A stretch of DNA of 64,000 nucleotides from Thermoproteota archaeon (GTDB taxonomy: Archaea > Thermoproteota > Thermoprotei > Gearchaeales > Gearchaeaceae): positions 1 through 64,000 of the forward strand of contig JAVVGF010000004.1 in assembly GCA_032249235.1 (NCBI GenBank). The letters are read 5' to 3'. Made by a program: the position numbers and the translations under genes. A model generated the notes under the pieces. The model did not search any database and had not been told where the DNA came from. It saw nothing but the letters and a program-made list of their open reading frames with translations. Below, in pieces: positions 1-17,172 of this stretch. Within the stretch, counting starts at the first letter, position 1. Each line of letters begins with the position of its first letter.

Positions 1-308
1 CCCGCTTTCACGGCCCGTACCCGTCTTAGGCATGGTGGGCCGTTACCCCACCATCTACCTGATAGGCCGTGCTCACATCCTCAGGCGGCGAAGAGCAGTC
101 GGCCCTTCGCCTTTAGGTAAGGAGCTATTCCAAGACTCCTTACCTATCCGGGATTATCCTCCGTTTCCAGAGGTTGTCCCGGACCTGAGGGTAGTTTGAG
201 CACGTTTTACTGAGCCGTACGCCGCGTGGCAGCTGATAACCCCTGCCACGCCGACTTGCATGGCTACCCACCCCGATAGCGGTCAGGTCCGGCAGGATCA
301 ACCGGGGT
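1..308 (-). rRNA. rrs: 16S rRNA, 5' portion (continues beyond window start)
   Basis: Minus strand begins ACCCCGGTTGATCCTGCCGGACC...GCCATGCAAGTCG...GGCTCAGTAA, the archaeal 16S 5' consensus; GC-rich against an AT-rich background. Confidence 0.97.
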
Positions 309-1673: not shown

Positions 1674-1990
1674 GGTGCAAGGTGTATTTGTAAGCCTCTT
1701 TTTGTTTCAACGCCATTCATCTAGTCGGTCGGAGAGCTCATAGGGGGTGCTCATTGCTCGCCCCGACCTTTGTCTTTGCGGGGGATCATGTTTCACCGAG
1801 CAATGGCTATACTCAAGCTAGCTACTTCGTTGCCGAAGTAGCATCGCCATCATAGACACCCAGCCATGCTCGTGCCATTTCTGTGGTCTACCAGGCCTTT
1901 CGGCCTATGCCTTACGGCATCGCAAACCCCCTAGCGACAGAGGACTTTCCTCAGGCTTGCGCCCGAGAGGCGTTCAATACACCTTGCACC
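1674..1990 (-). ncRNA. rnpB: RNase P RNA (type A-like)
   Basis: GAGGAAAGUCCUCU and AAACAAAAAGAGGCUUA P4 halves; 15-bp terminal P1 (GGUGCAAGGUGUAUU/AAUACACCUUGCACC); P6 UAGGGGG/CCCCCUA; GNRA-capped P8 and P9; followed by a U6 tract. Confidence 0.95.
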
Positions 1991-8433: not shown

Positions 8434-8922
8434 ATGGGTACAATTTCAACTGTAGAGATCAGGCCGCCAGAAGGTGTTAATGTCATTGTAGGACAATCAC
8501 ACTTCATCAAGACGGTTGAAGACATATACGAAGCAATAGTGACAACAGCACCACATCTAGAGTTCGGTATCGCATTTTGTGAGTCTTCAGGTCCTCGTTT
8601 AATAAGAAGAGATGGAAATGATCAAGAATTAATAAATCTCGCTACAGAATATGCAAGACAAATTGGTTGCGGTCATATTTTTGTTATATGTTTAAGAAAA
8701 GGCTACCCGATAAACATATTAAATGCTATAAAGCAAGTCCCTGAGGTTGTGGGAATATATTGTGCATCAGCCAATCCCTTATTATTCATCATTTATGAAG
8801 AAGGTGATAGAAGAGCTTTACTAGGCGTAAGCGATGGTCTAAAACCCTTAGGAGTAGAGGATGAAGAGAAAATAAGGGAAAGAATAAATTTTCTAAGAAA
8901 AATAGGTTATAAAAGAGGGTAA
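8434..8922 (+). CDS. DUF355 / adenosine-specific kinase family protein
   Basis: NVIVGQSHFIKTVEDIYEA, FGIAFCESSG, C-terminal FLRKIGYKR. Confidence 0.9.
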   Translation: MGTISTVEIRPPEGVNVIVGQSHFIKTVEDIYEAIVTTAPHLEFGIAFCESSGPRLIRRDGNDQELINLATEYARQIGCGHIFVICLRKGYPINILNAIKQVPEVVGIYCASANPLLFIIYEEGDRRALLGVSDGLKPLGVEDEEKIRERINFLRKIGYKRG

Positions 8923-10646
8923 ACCAATACTGAAGCAAATACAGAAAAAGCAAAAGTCACATAAGGTAAAACTTTTCCATATTTCACAAAGCGGTTCATT
9001 GCATTTTCATAGATTTTGATTAAATCACCTAATACTCTAAATTTGGGCGTTTCTATCTTTATAAAGGAAATTTTTGCTTCCTCAAAATTTTGGTTTGCAT
9101 AGTTTAGAGTGTTAATGATCCTTCTAATGATAATTTCATGAAGTTTTTTATTATAGCCAAAAGGATAGTATCCGTTATGTCCTGTAAAGCTACCTGTCAT
9201 TAAATGGGTATCTGTTGAACAAATTTCTCCTTTTATATTATATTCTAAAAGTTTTCTAACTATCTTATTTCTGAGCTCGAAATCTATATTATTTGAATCG
9301 ATAAGAATTAAGCAAAATGTTGAGGTGGTATTTCTAAATACTAGAAGATAACCTTCTCCCTTGCATACTTCATTTTCTAATCCTTCAATATCAAGTAATG
9401 GTATTTTTTGAAAACTTATTTTTCCACTTTCTAATCTTTCTTTTTTTAATAAATTTAAGTGATCTCGAATGCCGTTTAAAATTTCTGATTCGTAATCTAT
9501 TGCTTTATTTAAACCAAGCGAGTAAGAATTATGTGCGTCTATCAAGATTAAATCATCGAAACCATATTTTTTACAAAGTAGTTTCGCTTTTCTATGTGTA
9601 TCATAATTTAAATCATCGATGATGTCAGGAATTTTAGCGCTTATGATTATTACAGGGACGTGGTTTATCAAAAAACCTTTTATCACGAAATGTTTAGTTT
9701 CTGTCTCTACAAAATTTGAAATTTTTAGCTCTAATACTTCATTATATCTAATCATATTTTTCTCAACAAAATCTATTAAATAATTCTTTTCATCATTAGA
9801 TACGAAGTCATATTCATGTGTTGTTAAACCATGAAAAGGCAGTATGTGAATAGGATTCTTTGTCATAAGTATGGTAGGCAGATCTGAGCTACCTACACTT
9901 AAGAATGGTCCTGGGTGTATAGGTAAAGAAAGCAGACTTAGTCTTTTTCCTGAGCTTGTTTCAAATAGAGTCGCAGGGATTTCGAAGCTTGTCTCATATT
10001 TAACAACGCTCTTCAATGTTTTTTCGTAAAACAGGTGATTTTTGCTGAGCCAAGTTAATAAAAACCCCTTTAGATGTTCAAAAAGATCGATTTTGTATTT
10101 TCTTATTATCGTTTTTCTTATTAAGAAAAGATATAATTCAGTAATAGCTAGCGTAATTGCGAAAACAGCGTATGATTTCGTGAAGCTAAATAGTAAGTTA
10201 TGAGTATCTTTCTCGATGACGAGATTGTAAAAAACGAGTATAGGAATAGATACTAAAAGAGAATAAACAGCTTTTAAGATGTTTTTCAGCGGCGTTACAA
10301 AATCTAAAGCTATGGTTGCTAAAGAAATAAAACATACCAAGACTGCAGTGCTAATTAATACGTTTTTAATAAACGAATAAAGGAAAAAGGATATTAATAA
10401 ACCAAAACTATAGAATAAAAAAAATCCAAGAGCCCTTTTTAAGGTTGTAAATTTATCTATTTTTGTAAAAATATATTCGATTAATAATACTAAAAATAAA
10501 ACAGGTAGAAAAATTATTTTGTTTGAATTTATTATAAAAATTAAGAGTATAACAATAATTAATAATATTGACTCATAAAGGATTAATATCTTTGTTGTTG
10601 GTAAAATCCAGAGTTCTTTGTAAAATTTTTCTATAGATCTTTTCAT
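8907..10646 (-). CDS. DUF2070 family membrane protein
   Basis: N-terminal TM bundle; HPGPF..VGSS, DAHN, DSNN, TDTH motifs. Confidence 0.88.
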   Translation of the reverse strand: MKRSIEKFYKELWILPTTKILILYESILLIIVILLIFIINSNKIIFLPVLFLVLLIEYIFTKIDKFTTLKRALGFFLFYSFGLLISFFLYSFIKNVLISTAVLVCFISLATIALDFVTPLKNILKAVYSLLVSIPILVFYNLVIEKDTHNLLFSFTKSYAVFAITLAITELYLFLIRKTIIRKYKIDLFEHLKGFLLTWLSKNHLFYEKTLKSVVKYETSFEIPATLFETSSGKRLSLLSLPIHPGPFLSVGSSDLPTILMTKNPIHILPFHGLTTHEYDFVSNDEKNYLIDFVEKNMIRYNEVLELKISNFVETETKHFVIKGFLINHVPVIIISAKIPDIIDDLNYDTHRKAKLLCKKYGFDDLILIDAHNSYSLGLNKAIDYESEILNGIRDHLNLLKKERLESGKISFQKIPLLDIEGLENEVCKGEGYLLVFRNTTSTFCLILIDSNNIDFELRNKIVRKLLEYNIKGEICSTDTHLMTGSFTGHNGYYPFGYNKKLHEIIIRRIINTLNYANQNFEEAKISFIKIETPKFRVLGDLIKIYENAMNRFVKYGKVLPYVTFAFSVFASVLVYPLL

Positions 10647-10842: not shown

Positions 10843-13032
10843 CTAAATATTAAAAAATTTATCTAGTTTTTCGAAGCGTTCCTCTTCTTTGAAATATGTA
10901 TATACGTATCTCTTTAACCTTCTATTGTTCTTCCGATATAATATCGACAGACTACTGAGCTGAGTAAAGTTACTATACTCTTTTAATAATGCATTTATTT
11001 CTTTTTTAAACCATTTATAGGTTATTCTATTTTTGCATTTAGGGCAATAAATATTCATTTTAGGTCTATCTAGAAGGTTTTCACACCTTGGGCACTTTAT
11101 CTTCATCGTAATATTTTCTTTTATTGCATTTGTGAGTGGTTGTAATACGCGATGTTTAAAATATATAGCAAAGGACAAATCGTTCTGTGTTTCATTTGAC
11201 GATTCTTCTAAGCTTATCCTTAATGCTTCACTTTTCTTTTCTCTTTTTGGTATGTCTGTTAAAATATATAACCCCCTAAGATCGTCTAGATATAAAGCTG
11301 ACGCGTTAAGTAAAAAATCTTGGGGCAAACAAATTCTTATTAAATTATCGGCGATTATTTCTCCATATAAAGCATCATATAGCGTCTTGCTTATTATTCC
11401 ATAACTTTTTTTAATAAAACCTTTTATTGTCAGAGGGTAAAAAATTAAACCTCTTATAGAACGTGCTAATATGATATCCCCTTCTTTAATTGATTCTTTA
11501 CAAAAGTCCTTAAGATCTTCTTTTCGATATATATTTATTAATTCTAGTATGTAAGAATTGATCTTTTTTAATCTTTCTAGAACTGATTCAGGTAGCAGTA
11601 TTTCATCATCTTTAATTTGATATAAACTTTCTCGGTCTTCAATATAATCGCTAACGATTACAGGCAATACTATTTCTGCAACTCCGTTCTCTGCAATATC
11701 TATATTCTGCTTTAGTCTTATAGAAAGCTTATATGGTGAAGGATAAAAAAAAGTACGAGAAAATTTAAGCTTTTGAATCTTTTCAGGCGTTATATTACTT
11801 TCTATGAGTTTTTCTTCTATTAACTTCAATGGATCTTCTTTAAATTTCAATATAGGTGAAAGTGTGCTATCACAAGAGATGCACCTTATATATTCATTTG
11901 CTATTCCGCATTTATTGCAATAATACGTTAATCTTTTTTCTCTTCTACAATTTTCACAATACTCAAAGCAACTTATTTCTAAACAATTTTCGCAAACAAA
12001 ACTGAACGAATCAAATTCGTTATTATTTTTCTTATTCCTATAAGGCAGAATAACTTGATAATAATAATCCTCTAGTTGAGTTTCTTTGAGCTTTAGCCCC
12101 AGTATATGTCTATTACCATTGGAAATCCTATTTCCATATCTAGATATGACCTTTCTAAAACTTTCTAAGTCAATTACGCTATGAGGGGTATGCATTTCTA
12201 TGCTCGAGACTATTCTTATATCTGATTTTTCAGAATCTCGATCATATACATTTATTGTATCATTATATTCTTGTATATAGATTTTTTTTAACAATAATCT
12301 ATATTTACTAATAATATTTTTAAGCCATTCATCTGGATCAATTAACTTTAATATTTTTAATGCTTCATCAAAATAATATATAAGCGAATCAAGAAAAATA
12401 TCTAAATATATATTTTCAGATTCATTTTCATCTATGATCTTAATAGTAAATTTATCAAAAAGGAATTTCAAGAATTCAAATAAAAGACGTTTATGGTAAA
12501 TATTAATTTCTTTAAATTTCTTGTTTATTAATGAGATGATAAAAGTTTTATCTCTAATTGTATATTCAGATGCGCTTATTATTTCTCTTAATTTCTCTGC
12601 TAATACTGCCGCAAGAAAGCTAATTATTGGCTCTTTTATCTCTTTTAAATTCAATTTCAACACTACATAATTTCCCTTGCTAATTTCTTCTTGGTAAAGC
12701 TCCAATATGCCTCTTAATGGAGAAGAATCGACGAAATTAAAATAATACAATAAGGCTGTCTGCAAAGCTATCTTAAGATCATTATTATAATCATTTGTTA
12801 TAATAACTCGCTTCAATGCAACGCTTCTCAATATTTCTGAACATAACTCCAGTTTATTTTTTACTCCTACTGTATTTTCAAGATTGGTTATCAGTTCAGA
12901 TAACTTTCTATTATTAAAAATATTACTTACAAGAATTGCATTTATTATTCTCTTATGAAAGAAAATTTTATGAGATTCAAAGTCTCTACCAATTTTTTCT
13001 GCTTTTTCTATCAACGTTTCAATTGCGCTCAT
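10843..13032 (-). CDS. degenerate DNA polymerase D large subunit (DP2)-like protein, catalytic motif lost
   Basis: Colinear resemblance to DP2: TAL...SSPLRGI (ALAILTEGVVSAPLEGI), central multi-CxxC module, DFLLNAS (DALLNFS), KCPRC..RP....CPKC, C-terminal LDKFF; no CDGDED. Confidence 0.75.
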   Translation of the reverse strand: MSAIETLIEKAEKIGRDFESHKIFFHKRIINAILVSNIFNNRKLSELITNLENTVGVKNKLELCSEILRSVALKRVIITNDYNNDLKIALQTALLYYFNFVDSSPLRGILELYQEEISKGNYVVLKLNLKEIKEPIISFLAAVLAEKLREIISASEYTIRDKTFIISLINKKFKEINIYHKRLLFEFLKFLFDKFTIKIIDENESENIYLDIFLDSLIYYFDEALKILKLIDPDEWLKNIISKYRLLLKKIYIQEYNDTINVYDRDSEKSDIRIVSSIEMHTPHSVIDLESFRKVISRYGNRISNGNRHILGLKLKETQLEDYYYQVILPYRNKKNNNEFDSFSFVCENCLEISCFEYCENCRREKRLTYYCNKCGIANEYIRCISCDSTLSPILKFKEDPLKLIEEKLIESNITPEKIQKLKFSRTFFYPSPYKLSIRLKQNIDIAENGVAEIVLPVIVSDYIEDRESLYQIKDDEILLPESVLERLKKINSYILELINIYRKEDLKDFCKESIKEGDIILARSIRGLIFYPLTIKGFIKKSYGIISKTLYDALYGEIIADNLIRICLPQDFLLNASALYLDDLRGLYILTDIPKREKKSEALRISLEESSNETQNDLSFAIYFKHRVLQPLTNAIKENITMKIKCPRCENLLDRPKMNIYCPKCKNRITYKWFKKEINALLKEYSNFTQLSSLSILYRKNNRRLKRYVYTYFKEEERFEKLDKFFNI

Positions 13033-13631
13033 AAGCTTTCAGCCAAAAAAGAAATCAATATAGGATATACTAAATTATCGCTATATGGAAGCGGCACGCT
13101 GTCAATAATATAAACCGTTATCGCTATTATTGAAGCTTTTAAAATACTCGTATAATTCAAAAGTATAAAAAATGTTAGTATTGCGCCAAAAAACGAGCCT
13201 ATCACGCTTTTGTTCTTATTATAAGGATGCTTTATTTGATCAAAAATCATGCCTACCAAGCTAATAATTGGATCGATGAATGTTACCACAAATACACCTA
13301 TTAAAAATGGTATTTCATGGAAGAATATGGATGAAAAGAGTACACCTGAGAGAAAATAAGTATGAGCGCCTAAGTATGTTCTTTCATAGCTCCTGCTAAT
13401 TGTATCTGCAATTCGTTTCAAAGGATATTGAATATAAACTCTTAGTCTAATCGCATCAGATAAGATAGCTAAGAATAGCAATGACGTGAATAACATGATG
13501 GCTATTTCCTTGCCTAAATAAAAATAAGCGAGTATTAAAAATGAACCTAGACCGATATGAAATGCTTTTCTATATATTTCGCTCTGAAAATTCTTATCTT
13601 CAAATTTAGCTTTTAACCCGAATATTTTCAT
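13029..13631 (-). CDS. CTP-dependent polyprenol/diacylglycerol kinase family membrane protein (SEC59/DGK1/VTE5)
   Basis: EIYRKAFH, DP...LVG, KSVIGS, DNL..P motifs; multi-TM. Confidence 0.82.
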   Translation of the reverse strand: MKIFGLKAKFEDKNFQSEIYRKAFHIGLGSFLILAYFYLGKEIAIMLFTSLLFLAILSDAIRLRVYIQYPLKRIADTISRSYERTYLGAHTYFLSGVLFSSIFFHEIPFLIGVFVVTFIDPIISLVGMIFDQIKHPYNKNKSVIGSFFGAILTFFILLNYTSILKASIIAITVYIIDSVPLPYSDNLVYPILISFLAESL

Positions 13632-14370
13632 TAATGTCTCTCAATATTTTGTATAATTCATCATAATCATTAATTTCTTCAATTAGTGACCCTGTCACCA
13701 CGATTTCTGCGCCTGCTTTAGCTAGTTTCCTAGCGGTTTCCGCATCTCTTATACCTCCTCCAACAATTAAGTGTATGTTAATATTGCTTCTTACAAATTT
13801 AACCATTTCCGGTGGTATGCTTGTTTTTGAACCAGATCCCGCCTCAAGATAAACCATCCTCATGCCTAACATTTCGGCAGCCATTGCATAAGCTGCAACG
13901 ATATTATGATGTTTTATAGGAATAGGCCTAGCCCATCCAACATAACTTACAACTTCTCCTTCACCTATTATCAAATATCCAACTGGTATCGCTTCTAATT
14001 TATATCTTTTAATTATAGGTGCAGCTAACATTTGGGCCTCTATAAGATAATAAGGGTTTTGAGAATTCAGTAAACTCATATAAAAAATTGCATCTGCATT
14101 GTTAGTAATAGAGTTTAAACCGCTCGGGAATATGATTACAGGTAATTTACAATATTCCTTTATGATTTCAACTGTATGGAACATTAATGATTCTGTTACA
14201 CCCGTAGAACCTCCGACAAGAATAGCGCTAGTTCCAGCTCTTTCTATTACTTCAATTAATTTCTTAGCATTAAGTTTATGAAACTTTTCTGGATCAATTA
14301 AAACAACATGTATGCAGCCATTTTCATTTATTCTAGCTTCAAGATAACTTTCTACTTTTCCTTTTATCAT
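13606..14370 (-). CDS. geranylgeranylglyceryl phosphate synthase
   Basis: HVVLIDP, LVGGSTG, SLLNS.NPYY, YLEAGSG, VGGGIR, VVTG. Confidence 0.95.
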   Translation of the reverse strand: MIKGKVESYLEARINENGCIHVVLIDPEKFHKLNAKKLIEVIERAGTSAILVGGSTGVTESLMFHTVEIIKEYCKLPVIIFPSGLNSITNNADAIFYMSLLNSQNPYYLIEAQMLAAPIIKRYKLEAIPVGYLIIGEGEVVSYVGWARPIPIKHHNIVAAYAMAAEMLGMRMVYLEAGSGSKTSIPPEMVKFVRSNINIHLIVGGGIRDAETARKLAKAGAEIVVTGSLIEEINDYDELYKILRDINENIRVKS

Positions 14371-14606
14371 AATTGGCCACTATAAAAAGCATCTACGAAG
14401 GCATTATAAGCGTCAACTGGTTCTTCACTTAACCTTAACTCTACGCTTGTATTTAAGTTGCATGAAGTACATCTCACTTCAGCCATATTCTTTTCTTTGT
14501 ATATTTTCACGAAGACAGATTGCTTACCACAATTAGGACATAAAAAAACCTTAGGTATTTTTCTAACTACCTTTTTTACTATCTTCTTTCTCTTCCTCCT
14601 CCCCAC
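14367..14606 (-). CDS. elf1: transcription elongation factor Elf1
   Basis: MGRRKRK basic N-terminus, FLCPNC...CTSC, EPVDAY..FVD. Confidence 0.92.
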   Translation of the reverse strand: MGRRKRKKIVKKVVRKIPKVFLCPNCGKQSVFVKIYKEKNMAEVRCTSCNLNTSVELRLSEEPVDAYNAFVDAFYSGQL

Positions 14607-14716: not shown

Positions 14717-15112
14717 CTATATTGCTTGCTTAAAAATTTTAATTCGATATTTTTCCAAGTTTGAATCGATGGCTACTTTGAATATATCCTTTGTTTCAAA
14801 AATCGGCATGATTTGTTGGACTTGTTCAACGATTTCGCATGCAAGAAGATGATAGCAAGGTTTGATCTTATTTTTTATCAAAGCTGCAGTGAAACCATAA
14901 CAACTGCAATATAGACCTTTAATAGTAATATACGTATCTCTTTTACCTCTAATTATAAAAAAACGTTTCCCCTTAACCTTACTTTTTATTTCAAATATTC
15001 TATTATCTTTTATCAATTCGATTGCATCTATTATTTTCTTTGATTTAAAGTCTTCTCTATAGTATTGTTTAAGGTAATTGTTGATTTTTCTAATTAGCTC
15101 TTTACTTTGCAT
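14717..15112 (-). CDS. SWIM zinc-finger protein
   Basis: YCSC...PCYHLLA (CxC-xn-CxH). Confidence 0.8.
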   Translation of the reverse strand: MQSKELIRKINNYLKQYYREDFKSKKIIDAIELIKDNRIFEIKSKVKGKRFFIIRGKRDTYITIKGLYCSCYGFTAALIKNKIKPCYHLLACEIVEQVQQIMPIFETKDIFKVAIDSNLEKYRIKIFKQAI

Positions 15113-15115
15113 TTA

Positions 15116-15188
15116 TGGGACCGCCAGGATTTGAACCTGGGCCACCAGGGCCCGAGCCTGGCAGTCTACCAAGCTATCCTACGGTCCC
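15116..15188 (-). tRNA. tRNA-Pro(CGG)
   Basis: GGGACCG/CGGTCCC acceptor stem, CCAGG-CTCGGGC-CCTGG anticodon arm. Confidence 0.94.
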
Positions 15189-15243: not shown

Positions 15244-17172
15244 ATGAATAATTCTTCAAGCTCCATTTTTCAATTGTTCAACGAATTAAGGTTTCGTATA
15301 TTATCAATACTTTATAGACATGGCGGTTTACGTGCTAGCGAACTTTTAAGTTTGTTATCAGGAAATGAATTGACTCTTCAAAATCTCTTGTATCACTTAA
15401 ACATTTTGGAAAGAAAAGGACTACTACTTCGGGATGAAGATAAGCGCTATTTCATAACTGATTTTGGTAAACACATTCTTGAAAAAATTGAAGAAATCGA
15501 AGATATGGTTGAAAGCGAATCAAAAATAAGAATTTTAATGTCCGATTATCCATATATTCAAATATTATCTAAAAGGATTTTACAAATGCTAATTCAAGAA
15601 AACTTTAATCTGAAAAAACCCGATGAAGACAGTATATTAAAAGAATTGGTTGATAGACTTAATTTTTATCGTTCAGATTTAATTACAAAGGAAGTAATTA
15701 ATGCTCTCATTATATCCTTATTAATAGAAAAACATAAAGAAATAAACTATTACAATCTACATGTATCTAAAGAAAACGAGTTAATAGAAAATAAAAGAAT
15801 TAACATCCTTCAATATTTAATATCTAATATAAATCAACTAAAAGAATATTTGCATTTAATTTATATTTCTTCATTAGATTTTTTTAATGAAAAATCTATA
15901 GATTTAAGAATGGATATAGCTAGAATCTCATATACTGGTGAAAATGAAAAAGAGAATATATTGGTTCTTTATAATAGCTATTTTAAGATAAAAAATATTT
16001 TAAATTCCCTATCTACAGGTATCTTATTAAATAAATCAGATGGCTTTATAAGTATTCAGAATAAATTTTATTATTATTTTAAAATGTTATTACAACTTCT
16101 TTCATTTGATAATGACTATTTTATAAAGTTTGCATTTAGTGATATAAATTTGTTGAGACCAAATTTAATAAAAAATTATGATGGAAAAATTTTAATAAGA
16201 TGCGATTTAAATTTAGAATCAAGTGTTAATGATATTATTAATTGTATACATTTAATAAGTTCCTATCTAAAGGAAATACCTTTTCTTAGTTTCTTCAATA
16301 GAGAGGATTCGAGCGGAGGCCCATCATGTTTAGATTATTTCAATCCTAATGCTGATGAATGGGTTGTCATAGGCTCAATTTCATTGAATATGCCTAGACT
16401 TGTAGTCGAAAGCAATTATAATGAGGACAAACTTAAAGAAAAGTTGTTTGATCTATTTAAAATATCTCATAAGCTGGCACTATTAAAAGAGAGTAAAATC
16501 AAGAAAAATAACTTTATGAATGTATTCATGGCAAAGTTTTTTATAAATATCATTGGCCTTTTTGAATCAATTTTCTTATTAACTAATAAAACTATAAATG
16601 ATAGTTCATCCTATAAATTATTACGTAATCTATTAATTGAAATGGATAAAATTGTTGAAGAAATAGATTCTGAGAATTTATTAGGATTGTCTTCTGTTAG
16701 GGACTATGAAGCTAGCAAGGCCTTTTCGGATTATGACTTAAAACAAAATGATATAAGCTTTAAAAGAGAACTCAGATTTGCTTTGAAGAAGCATGGATAC
16801 TCATTTGGAATAATACCACCTTGGATTTCATTAAACTTCAAACAGAACTTATCTCTTCAAGGCCCTTTGCTACAATATTTTAAAGGAGGTTACACAGCCG
16901 AACTTTTTATACAACCTTCATTAATTGAGGAAAACTCTCTTAAAGAAATCTTTGAACAAGCATTTTTAAATTATAAATTGAGGACGATAAAGATATCAAC
17001 CATCGCATGCGTATGTTCTAGATGTTATAGCCATAAAGGTGGGCAAAACGATCTTTGTAAACAATGTGGTACGAAAGATTCTTACTATGCATTAAAGGAT
17101 GATCAAGGTCTTGTACATTATGTAAAAACAGAAGAGTTTTACGGACCTAGTCTTCTTTATTTATTAGATTAA
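15244..17172 (+). CDS. ArsR-like wHTH fused to ATP-cone-like and degenerate class III ribonucleotide reductase (NrdD)-like domains
   Basis: N-terminal RFRIL...YHLNIL...YFITDFG wHTH; GSISLNMPRL, IIGLFES, FKGG and terminal CSRC..CKQCG resemble NrdD; RxxGY replaced by DDQGL. Confidence 0.68.
   Translation: MNNSSSSIFQLFNELRFRILSILYRHGGLRASELLSLLSGNELTLQNLLYHLNILERKGLLLRDEDKRYFITDFGKHILEKIEEIEDMVESESKIRILMSDYPYIQILSKRILQMLIQENFNLKKPDEDSILKELVDRLNFYRSDLITKEVINALIISLLIEKHKEINYYNLHVSKENELIENKRINILQYLISNINQLKEYLHLIYISSLDFFNEKSIDLRMDIARISYTGENEKENILVLYNSYFKIKNILNSLSTGILLNKSDGFISIQNKFYYYFKMLLQLLSFDNDYFIKFAFSDINLLRPNLIKNYDGKILIRCDLNLESSVNDIINCIHLISSYLKEIPFLSFFNREDSSGGPSCLDYFNPNADEWVVIGSISLNMPRLVVESNYNEDKLKEKLFDLFKISHKLALLKESKIKKNNFMNVFMAKFFINIIGLFESIFLLTNKTINDSSSYKLLRNLLIEMDKIVEEIDSENLLGLSSVRDYEASKAFSDYDLKQNDISFKRELRFALKKHGYSFGIIPPWISLNFKQNLSLQGPLLQYFKGGYTAELFIQPSLIEENSLKEIFEQAFLNYKLRTIKISTIACVCSRCYSHKGGQNDLCKQCGTKDSYYALKDDQGLVHYVKTEEFYGPSLLYLLD

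Follow-up and report, generated by a model that had tools for sequence, protein, structure and literature searches.

To our knowledge, textbook accounts treat the DNA polymerase of family D (PolD), with its large subunit DP2 and its partner DP1, as absent from the Crenarchaeota in the narrow sense. Here, we analysed a 64,000-nucleotide stretch of DNA (hereafter the window, positions 1 to 64,000 of contig JAVVGF010000004.1 in the Thermoproteota assembly GCA_032249235.1), the minus strand of which carries a 729-amino-acid (aa) open reading frame (ORF) that proved to be a shortened and catalytically dead relative of DP2. In the canonical enzyme, either D964A or D966A is reported to abolish polymerisation by Thermococcus 9N PolD, with equivalent residues in P. 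horikoshii (PMC7708050). The KH-like PIRxxGG motif is described as sitting beside the template strand, and a Zn-III loop with R1131/R1132 is described as forming the DP1 interface together with the helices of the C-terminal domain (CTD; PMC6355029). The P. abyssi cPIP peptide KKRVISLEEFFS has been reported to bind both PCNA and primase (PMC7101311), PolD to connect primase to the CMG-like helicase (PMC8096248), and the N-terminal domain of DP1 to bind Gins51 (PMC9023282). Eight residues are listed for the exonuclease site of DP1 (D360, H362, D404, N450, H451, H497, H560, and H562), of which H451 was mutated to alanine to give the exonuclease-dead DP1 used in structural work (PMC10721889). The closest described departures from this scheme are an inactivated DP1 and/or the lack of an active DP2 in the Nitrososphaeria GCA_002499005-like group, in Heimdall B3/LC3, and in Aenigmarchaeota (PMC7544198); for the Nitrososphaeria group, that paper states that no conclusion is yet possible (Kazlauskas et al. 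2020). A literature search, which left the supplements of PMC7544198 and most subscription journals outside its reach, brought up no account of an inactive or shortened DP2 that is retained, and Supplementary Figures S15/S16 and Table S6 of that paper may show one.

The ORF starts with ATG and runs for 729 codons free of internal stops in the ORF list of the window (Table 1). A first-pass annotation, made from the letters alone, had read it as a catalytically dead, shrunken DP2 kept as an intact gene, and this reading holds by sequence, profile, synteny, selection, and structure. Upon searching the curated models, we found no Pfam family above cut-off for the protein and no match to any of the three DP2 models (PolC_DP2_N, _central, and _cat), the NCBIfam DP2 equivalogs stayed below their cut-offs (21.3 bits, E 4e-5, vs 1791; 18.5 bits vs 1269), and genome scans with PF03833, PF24846, and PF24844 returned nothing above cut-off. 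Surveys based on Pfam or NCBIfam would likely report DP1 but no DP2 for these genomes, and public records label three of the four named cluster members as 'hypothetical protein' and the remaining one as 'Csl4'. Using the single sequence as a phmmer query, we obtained four matches in the PDB listed up to E 10, all four of them DP2 (best E 0.005). The same query against 1.84 billion cluster representatives retrieved 12 proteins at E 0.001 or better, namely eight full-length relatives of 611-765 aa, two fragments (P0010 and P0012, kept out of the alignments), one member of a second short family (P0014), and one false positive (P0013, E 6.6e-4), which was dropped as a PKD/T9SS protein. A profile built from ten family members matched P. 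abyssi DP2 among the solved chains at E 2.8e-31, the next family (Nop10) following at E 0.013, and this match was colinear in three stretches (residues 336-464 to 696-834, 463-591 to 859-993, and 621-702 to 1098-1179 of the P. abyssi protein). Upon aligning 13 family members with 14 canonical DP2 proteins of the phylum by hhalign, we obtained a probability of 99.9% and an E of 9.1e-31 over 696 columns, with query residues 4-728 spanning residues 20-1137 of the canonical template.

The N-terminal part, which was the most difficult to place, could be assigned separately. Its 330 residues alone aligned in hhalign with canonical residues 55-276 at a score of 45.9 (P 1e-4), compared to 16.3 for a reversed alignment and 11.7-21.9 for ten column shuffles, and its predicted fold matched that of P. 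horikoshii DP2(1-300) (3o59) in both structure models (Z 16.2 and 15.9, root-mean-square deviation 3.6-3.7 Å, 205-208 residues aligned), the matching region of model 1 being residues 29-247. A MAFFT alignment that placed the N-terminus on DPBB-1 was rejected after these two results, because of which we take the N-terminus to be the DP2 N-terminal domain and not DPBB-1. The structure models were obtained with AlphaFold2 from two different inputs, the short family plus P0014 (model 1; pLDDT 74.7, pTM 0.69) and 35 sequences including canonical DP2 (model 2; pLDDT 78.3, pTM 0.75); model 2 may lean on its canonical rows, but model 1, built without them, gives the same result. As the first-pass annotation would have it, DP2 chains ranked first when the predicted model was searched with Foldseek (eight chains, E 4e-20 to 2e-15), followed by the isolated N-terminal domain of P. 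horikoshii DP2 (E 5.8e-4, TM 0.60 by target). With VIA-align, DP2 chains scored Z 16.0-21.2 against the predicted models, after which came a gap down to Z ≤8.1. The ESM Atlas model was poor (pLDDT 0.33), with structure rows at TM <0.4 and feature rows to DP2 clusters at 0.89-0.94 that serve as a lead only. We conclude that the 729-aa protein is genuinely related to DP2, the large subunit of PolD, although it has diverged very far.

The gene is also found where a DP2 gene would be found in related genomes. Its neighbours, a gene resembling GGGP synthase (GGGPS) and one for a DUF2070 membrane protein, are shared with canonical DP2 (the DUF2070 protein is 28% identical, E 2e-22, to the membrane protein encoded downstream of canonical DP2 in the class-mate G016), and the order GGGPS - DP2 - membrane protein recurs in G016 (DP2 of 1140 aa) and G014 (1137 aa). 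Hence, the 729-aa gene occupies the canonical DP2 slot and is a positional ortholog of DP2. The name GGGP synthase is our reading of the sequence and does not come from a family-model match. The Elf1-like, GGGPS-like, membrane protein, and DP2-like genes form a chain with successive overlaps of 4-26 bases, suggesting that the four are carried on one transcript.

Mapping the protein onto canonical DP2 with hhalign revealed what has been lost. Query residues 4-242 correspond to canonical residues 20-276 (the Pfam N domain), 336-465 to 634-766, 466-598 to 793-932, and 619-728 to 1028-1137, while residues 243-335 are scattered over 291-621. The protein is ~410 residues shorter than a canonical class-mate DP2, of which ~240 residues are missing from the central domain and ~95 from between DPBB-2 and clamp-1. 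For comparison, in 81 sampled high-quality genomes of the phylum, 58 of which had DP2 matches, the canonical open frames measured ~1,120-1,190 aa, with a 1,716-aa protein carrying an insertion, a 1,096-aa protein, and one split gene as exceptions. The 93-residue linker in place of the central domain is the least conserved part of the protein (highest column entropy, 2.29 bits), with pLDDT <50 at residues 257-321 and 258-314 in the two models. GRPEK was present in none of the 13 family members vs 12 of the 14 canonical proteins, and PIRxxGG in 0/13 vs 11/14. The basic-motif pattern [KR]xxRxGK was found in 0/13 members as well, which is a weak test given that it caught only 7/14 canonical sequences. 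Elsewhere in the genome, PolC_DP2_central gave nothing beyond Zn-ribbon noise at E 0.08 or worse, and in the genome scans the rest of the assembly was without a central or catalytic DP2 domain. Judging from these alignments, DPBB-1 with the basic motif has been deleted from the 729-aa protein.

The acidic site on the remaining barrel has been lost too. Where the invariant RRNCDGDED should sit, the first-pass annotation had pointed to GEIIADNLIR (residues 557-566), and this segment lies exactly opposite in both the profile and the hhalign alignments. A561 and N563 face the two catalytic Asp residues (D956/D958 of P. abyssi, numbering from the profile alignment), and thus neither acidic residue is conserved. 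The pattern [ND]xDGD was found in 14/14 canonical sequences, 0/2 intermediate sequences (from a sister family, described below), and 0/13 short-family sequences. Among the 12 of 13 short-family members that an anchor pattern caught, the first Asp position is never acidic and the second is N in 11 and K in one.

The remainder of the protein follows the order of DP2, and every motif that had been named was present at its place. ALQTAL (89-94), SSPLRGI (103-109), and VLAEKLR (142-148) fall on the DP2 N-terminal domain in hhalign, QIKDDEILL (472-480) aligns with P. abyssi ELKPQDIIL, and DFLLNASALYL (572-582) with DALLNFSRYYL, and we also found the four central CxxC pairs (C347/350, C359/362, C372/375, and C384/387), the KCPRC..RP...CPKC finger (C647/650, an R656-P657 loop, and C663/666), and the terminal EKLDKFF (721-727). 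None of the 12 Zn cysteines is missing; in a comparison of 35 short, intermediate, and canonical sequences, C362 is nearly invariant and the other 11 fully so, the four cysteines of Zn-III being conserved in 35/35. R656-P657 is kept in the six closest family members, and of the canonical R1131/R1132/Pro in this loop, only the second Arg and the Pro are kept. DPBB-2 has retained its strands DEIILP, IxYPVKIKG, and DFLLNAS, and residues 448-598 of the model superpose on DP2 as part of the whole-chain matches at Z 16-21 and also match the Rpb1-type barrel of RNA polymerase and designed DPBB proteins at Z 7.2-8.1 (for the designed protein 7di0, Z 7.5, root-mean-square deviation 2.1 Å, 83 residues aligned). 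Among the 9-mers of the family, FEKLDKFFN (720-728), in the tail, ranks second in conservation (0.71 bits), and PQDFLLNAS (570-578) and IKDDEILLP (473-481) are further top-conserved ones. Within the last 13 residues, [KR]LDK[FY][FL] occurs in 13/13 members, with KLDRF[FL] in 2/2 intermediates. As a separate observation, the top-ranking motif, with the consensus YQEE[IL]xKGN, is without a canonical DP2 counterpart and is located in the KH-like hairpin where the PIRxxGGT region was lost.

The genome search that the first-pass annotation had proposed yielded a DP1 and no second intact DP2. The DP1 relative (468 aa, host genome G000, C1:335887-337290) matches solved DP1 at E 3.4e-47, passes PF04042 (36.6 bits vs a cut-off of 29.1), and has the OB fold. 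It adjoins Orc1/Cdc6 and Endo_dU, in the same order as around canonical DP1 in G012, G014, G015, and G016, and is a positional ortholog of canonical DP1. Four of the eight exonuclease-site residues, the essential His among them, are replaced in 8/8 family genomes examined (H362R, N450E, H451R, and H562 to D or N), compared to N450E only in the DP1 of the sister family (2/2) and an intact site in the canonical class-mates (5/5). As the four substitutions are themselves conserved, they suggest a fixed structural state. DP1 was present in 9/9 family genomes, including G003, in which a first look with Pfam missed it and a protein query recovered it. Sequence and predicted structure support the loss of catalysis in both the 729-aa DP2 relative and its DP1 as well as such evidence can.

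To see how far this state extends, we counted both subunits over 120 species representatives of the class. In the window's family, a DP2-like gene was found in 8/9 genomes, the missing one being 67% complete, and its short-form open frames of 729-760 aa are intact in those eight, none of which contained a second, canonical DP2 in a profile scan. The sister family had DP2 in 2/3 genomes (the missing one is 86% complete) and DP1 in 2/3, two further families had both DP2 and DP1 in 5/5, and the 103 genomes of the other families of the class had neither. Overall, DP1 and DP2 or its short relative co-occur in 14 genomes. Ten of the 25 genomes matching the family profile were not counted, their matches (E 1.3e-4 to 6.1e-4) being short Zn-ribbon stretches of other ORFs. 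In G016, G014, G015, and G012 (L023, L024, L049, and L050), PolD is apparently active, with NCDGDED and intact DP1 motifs, beside two PolB types. With two families carrying a complete PolD, the polymerase is not uniformly absent from this crenarchaeal class. The 1031-aa DP2 of the sister family is dead as well, reading GRLCNGQED for RRNCDGDED, with W in place of the basic motif's critical Lys and without GRPEK and PIRxxGG, and its Pfam scores are reduced (central 234 bits, catalytic 210, N-terminal 57, compared to 436, 466, and 360 for canonical DP2 of G016). It looks like the stage before the large deletion. The class thus offers a natural separation-of-function series, from intact PolD (two families) via a dead full-size form (one family) to the dead single-barrel 729-aa form (one family), which isolates whatever non-catalytic roles PolD has, for example as a link between primase, PCNA, and the CMG helicase, and which is testable with recombinant proteins.

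The short gene is under purifying selection. Within-genus pairs had saturated synonymous sites in 5/6 cases, and a closer metagenome relative (86% protein identity) was used instead, for which the ratio of nonsynonymous to synonymous substitutions (dN/dS) was 0.125 (dN 0.071, dS 0.570) over 725 codons. Across four parts of the gene, dN/dS ranged over 0.08-0.20, compared to 0.016-0.170 for six neighbouring ORFs, and the pair G004 and G005 gave 0.14. Across the 13 members, 33 columns are invariant, at pairwise identities down to ~25%, and the family branches measure 0.05-1.5 changes per column, rivalling canonical DP2 across the phylum. Within the genus, PolB1 is 80-84% identical, Orc1/Cdc6 87%, and DP1 54-63%, vs 36-41% for the DP2-like protein. 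With its dN/dS of 0.125 and this low within-genus identity, the gene is constrained, but far less than the active replicase. The first-pass annotation had regarded the gene as marking an intermediate stage of PolD loss. The distribution over active, dead 1031-aa, dead 729-aa, and no PolD fits this, but dN/dS and the intact genes in 8/9 family genomes indicate that the short DP2 is itself a stable, selected state and not a gene that is being lost.

The only intact replicase found in the genome is of PolB1 type. This single family B polymerase (G000 C6:31333-33933; L001:1408-4008, minus strand), for which PF00136 and PF03104 find one gene each, has 866 aa with its exonuclease and polymerase motifs intact (DIE, DFASLYPS, and YGDTDS), an acidic run at the N-terminus, and neither a Cys-rich C-terminus nor a Zn CTD. 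Its best solved match is 1s5j (an 847-aa 'DNA polymerase I' chain, E 3.6e-215; next match E 1.8e-52), which we take to be Sulfolobus PolB1. Among 31 sampled genomes of the class, most combine the PolB1 type with a PolB type of ~800 aa, which was present in 0/6 sampled family genomes, three of these carrying short extra PolB-like ORFs. As for putative replisome partners, the genome has neighbouring PCNA and PriL genes (C4:95755-97553) and a GINS gene (Sld5 family). Beyond the window, at G000 C4:95400-98763, we also note a head-to-tail arrangement of a Zn-ribbon protein, PCNA, PriL, and a 437-aa ORF, where the end of PCNA is the start of PriL and a stop inside the PriL match reflects a frame change to the next ORF and not a broken gene.

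Table 1. Positions of the DP2-like gene, the parts of its protein, its neighbours, and the sister-family counterpart. Residues refer to the 729-aa protein and positions to the window, except where a locus is named.
Feature	Residues	Position	Strand	Remark
Whole gene, non-catalytic DP2 relative		10843..13032	-	729-aa ORF; coordinates include stop codon
N-terminal KH-like domain, without PIRxxGGT	1-250	12283..13032	-	hhalign, 3o59 fold
YQEEISKGN motif	113-121	12670-12696	-	most conserved 9-mer of family, 0.58 bits
Linker, predicted disordered	251-335	12028..12282	-	replaces ~330 central-domain residues (DPBB-1, basic motif, GRPEK)
Zn-I and Zn-II modules, four CxxC pairs	336-400	11833..12027	-	aligns to P. 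abyssi 696-788
Clamp-2 and DPBB-2 with dead acidic motif	401-600	11233..11832	-	P. abyssi 788-993; canonical 634-932
Dead acidic site YGEIIADNLIR	556-566	11335..11367	-	opposite KRRNCDGDED
Zn-III finger and helical CTD, DP1-binding part of canonical DP2	641-719	10876..11112	-	P. abyssi 1098-1179
cPIP-like tail FEKLDKFFNI	720-729	10846..10875	-	resembles PCNA/primase-binding cPIP by sequence
Elf1-like gene		14367-14606	-	PF05129, 71.8 bits
GGGP synthase-like (GGGPS) gene		13606-14370	-	49% identity, E 7e-81, to G016 gene directly upstream of canonical DP2
200-aa membrane protein		13029-13631	-	stop overlaps DP2-like start by 4 bases; without Pfam family
DUF2070 membrane protein, downstream		8907..10646	-	PF09843, 241.9 bits
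Sister-family (f2) 1031-aa DP2		L021:3484-6579 in G009; L022:2649-5744 in G010	- (G009); + (G010)	same order of archaea

The contig that hosts the window (C4) is part of an 18-contig, 1.43-Mb assembly. The window sequence occurs in sequencing runs labelled hot springs metagenome, with at least half of the sampled words recovered in eight runs, five of which may be the source itself. The window begins inside a 16S rRNA gene, the 5' end of which occupies 1-308 (minus strand), and an archaeal RNase P RNA lies at 1679-1985 (minus strand). Of its seven tRNA genes, one (15116-15188) adjoins the DP2-like locus. A 131-aa ORF at 14717-15112 (minus strand) has no Pfam match at E 0.001 or better and shows a CxC...CxH pattern that we take to be SWIM-like. 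At 15244-17172 (plus strand), a 642-aa protein has an N-terminal winged-helix (HTH_20/MarR) region, a Cys-rich C-terminus, and a weak match to the anaerobic ribonucleotide reductase NrdD (39 bits, profile 279-531 of 562), and solved structures yielded zero sequence matches; it may be a further degenerate enzyme that has become a regulator.

We suggest that this positional ortholog of DP2 has probably turned into a pseudo-enzyme that, together with its dead DP1, serves the replisome as a connector without catalysis of its own. The evidence strongly supports a non-catalytic role, and we infer the scaffold role at the replisome from the parts that were kept and from the published roles of cPIP, of Zn-III/CTD, and of the PolD-CMG and DP1-Gins51 links. 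The dead DP2 would still pair with the dead DP1 via Zn-III and the CTD, its LDKFF tail would hold PCNA and/or the primase large subunit, and the retained N-terminal domain of DP1 would contact GINS, with the pair serving as a non-catalytic connector, a role that canonical PolD also plays beside catalysis. A replisome scaffold had been proposed in the first-pass annotation, and the kept Zn-III/CTD, the conserved cPIP-like tail, and the DP1 in 9/9 family genomes are consistent with it; what that annotation observed is confirmed, while what it made of the observation is partly supported.

Several findings weigh against a connector at the replisome. In both models, the tail forms the last part of a long helix (pLDDT 50-75), unlike the P. 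abyssi cPIP, which is carried on a flexible linker; the assembly is 91% complete; and a metatranscriptome run contained 14% of the sampled words, with a patchy and low cover of the locus that stems partly from conserved stretches of other organisms. Others would favour a protein that has left the replisome and, independently of DP1, PCNA, and primase, acts on its own as a nucleic-acid-binding or regulatory zinc-finger protein. The protein evolves fast, its 36-41% identity within the genus being unusual for a core replisome part, its operon partners (Elf1, GGGPS, and the membrane protein) come from outside replication and include lipid genes, and the family-specific YQEEISKGN is more conserved than any other segment, a hint of new function. 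In addition, one of the two DP1-contacting Arg residues is lost, with D655 facing R1131 and L653 facing K1129. We nevertheless regard such a departure as rather improbable: the operon context is the ancestral one, inherited from an active DP2 (the GGGPS link is common to class-mates with active DP2), the cPIP-like tail and Zn-III rank with the best-conserved segments, DP1 is kept in every family genome with its own substitutions conserved, and the two subunits keep each other's company in the 14 genomes where they co-occur, with neither in the 103 others.

Two further explanations have little in their favour. Two-barrel polymerases need both barrels, and that the 729-aa protein is still a DNA polymerase, with an unconventional active site, is very improbable given that DPBB-1 with the critical basic-motif Lys is deleted, that none of the 12 members examined has an acidic residue at the first Asp position, and that no positionally conserved DxD exists elsewhere in the protein, even though DPBB-2 and the DNA-clamping Zn modules are kept and N563 occupies the second Asp position in 11/12 members. 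Moreover, single D-to-A changes are reported to abolish PolD activity (PMC7708050). The massive loss of sequence and motifs and the lack of a match to any curated model could alternatively point to a decaying pseudogene that has so far escaped stop codons. This is the least probable explanation of all, and it is refuted as far as sequence can tell: dN/dS is 0.125 at a dS of 0.57, the 729-760-aa frames are intact in 8/9 family genomes with the ninth only 67% complete, 33 columns are invariant in 13 members, and the AlphaFold2 models are confident (pTM 0.69 and 0.75).

A more specific version of the connector, which we consider unlikely but consequential, is that the dead DP2 and dead DP1 would form an in-trans equivalent of the eukaryotic CTD and B subunit, docking PolB1 to CMG, primase, and PCNA. 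If true, a three-part, eukaryote-like replicative polymerase would have arisen independently inside the Thermoproteota, and the series from active PolD via dead full-length to dead short forms would replay a step that has been proposed to explain how Pol alpha, delta, and epsilon originated: PolB takes over from the part of DP2 that polymerises, and the CTD stays along with an inactivated DP1.

A second family of short proteins (P0014-P0021, 705-711 aa, labelled 'Nitrososphaeria archaeon, hypothetical protein') is a DP2 relative as well, with E 1.1e-10 vs solved DP2. It is without DxD, has the same D-N pair at the dead site, and ends in S[LI]G[DE]FW. Aligned with the window's family by hhalign, it gave a probability of 99.5% and an E of 3.8e-22 over the C-terminal half, and its N-terminal half had no similarity detectable by hhalign to that family. 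It may be the inactive-DP1 group noted in PMC7544198. Its profile found 0 matches at E 1e-20 in 401 sampled genomes of the phylum, an uninformative scan run without a positive control. In a maximum-likelihood tree of 34 DP2 and DP2-like proteins, the short family, the intermediate, and the Nitrososphaeria family lie on separate long branches outside a tight canonical cluster; long-branch attraction was flagged, and the tree is uninformative on the origin or sisterhood of the two short families.

Among the closest known systems is canonical DP2 (P. abyssi 6hms/6t8h; G016 and G014). The 729-aa protein shares with it common descent, the genomic slot, and the DP1 partner gene, together with a hydrophobic-aromatic tail, the KH-like domain, the Zn-I/II and Zn-III modules, DPBB-2, and the helical CTD. 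Unlike canonical DP2, it is without DPBB-1, the basic motif, GRPEK, NxDGD, and PIRxxGGT, and the region from DPBB-2 to clamp-1 is reduced. The 1031-aa DP2 of the sister family resembles it in being dead and in its KLDRF[FL] tail, but has kept the central domain, is recognised by Pfam, and is accompanied by a DP1 with only N450E. The Nitrososphaeria family of ~710 aa is similar in length and in the dead D-N site and differs in the tail, the N-terminal half, and the taxonomic label. In Aenigmarchaeota and Heimdall, a PolB with a DP2-type CTD is described as replacing DP2 (PMC7544198), whereas here PolB1 is without a Zn CTD and a free-standing dead DP2 keeps the CTD.

Why eukaryotic replicases have kept inactive polymerase modules and phosphoesterase-dead B subunits is unexplained; the retention of a dead DP2 with a dead DP1 is an archaeal counterpart of this, and it bears on the proposed handover from PolD to PolB at the origin of eukaryotic replication. 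The first-pass annotation had likened the protein to the inactive module of Pol epsilon. The inactive C-terminal half of Pol epsilon, with its CTD and Dpb2, and the B subunits in general are described as likewise combining an inactive module, a Zn-finger CTD, and a phosphoesterase-dead DP1 homolog kept for architecture (PMC4104785, PMC7544198). Unlike in Pol epsilon, the dead module here is a remnant of the family D two-barrel enzyme, and not of family B fold, that is a separate polypeptide and is not fused to an active polymerase; in the eukaryote-type architecture, the CTD is fused to the active PolB, whereas here it is found on the separate dead DP2. The comparison with Pol epsilon is hence apt as a statement of how the protein may work, by analogy, and not as one of descent.

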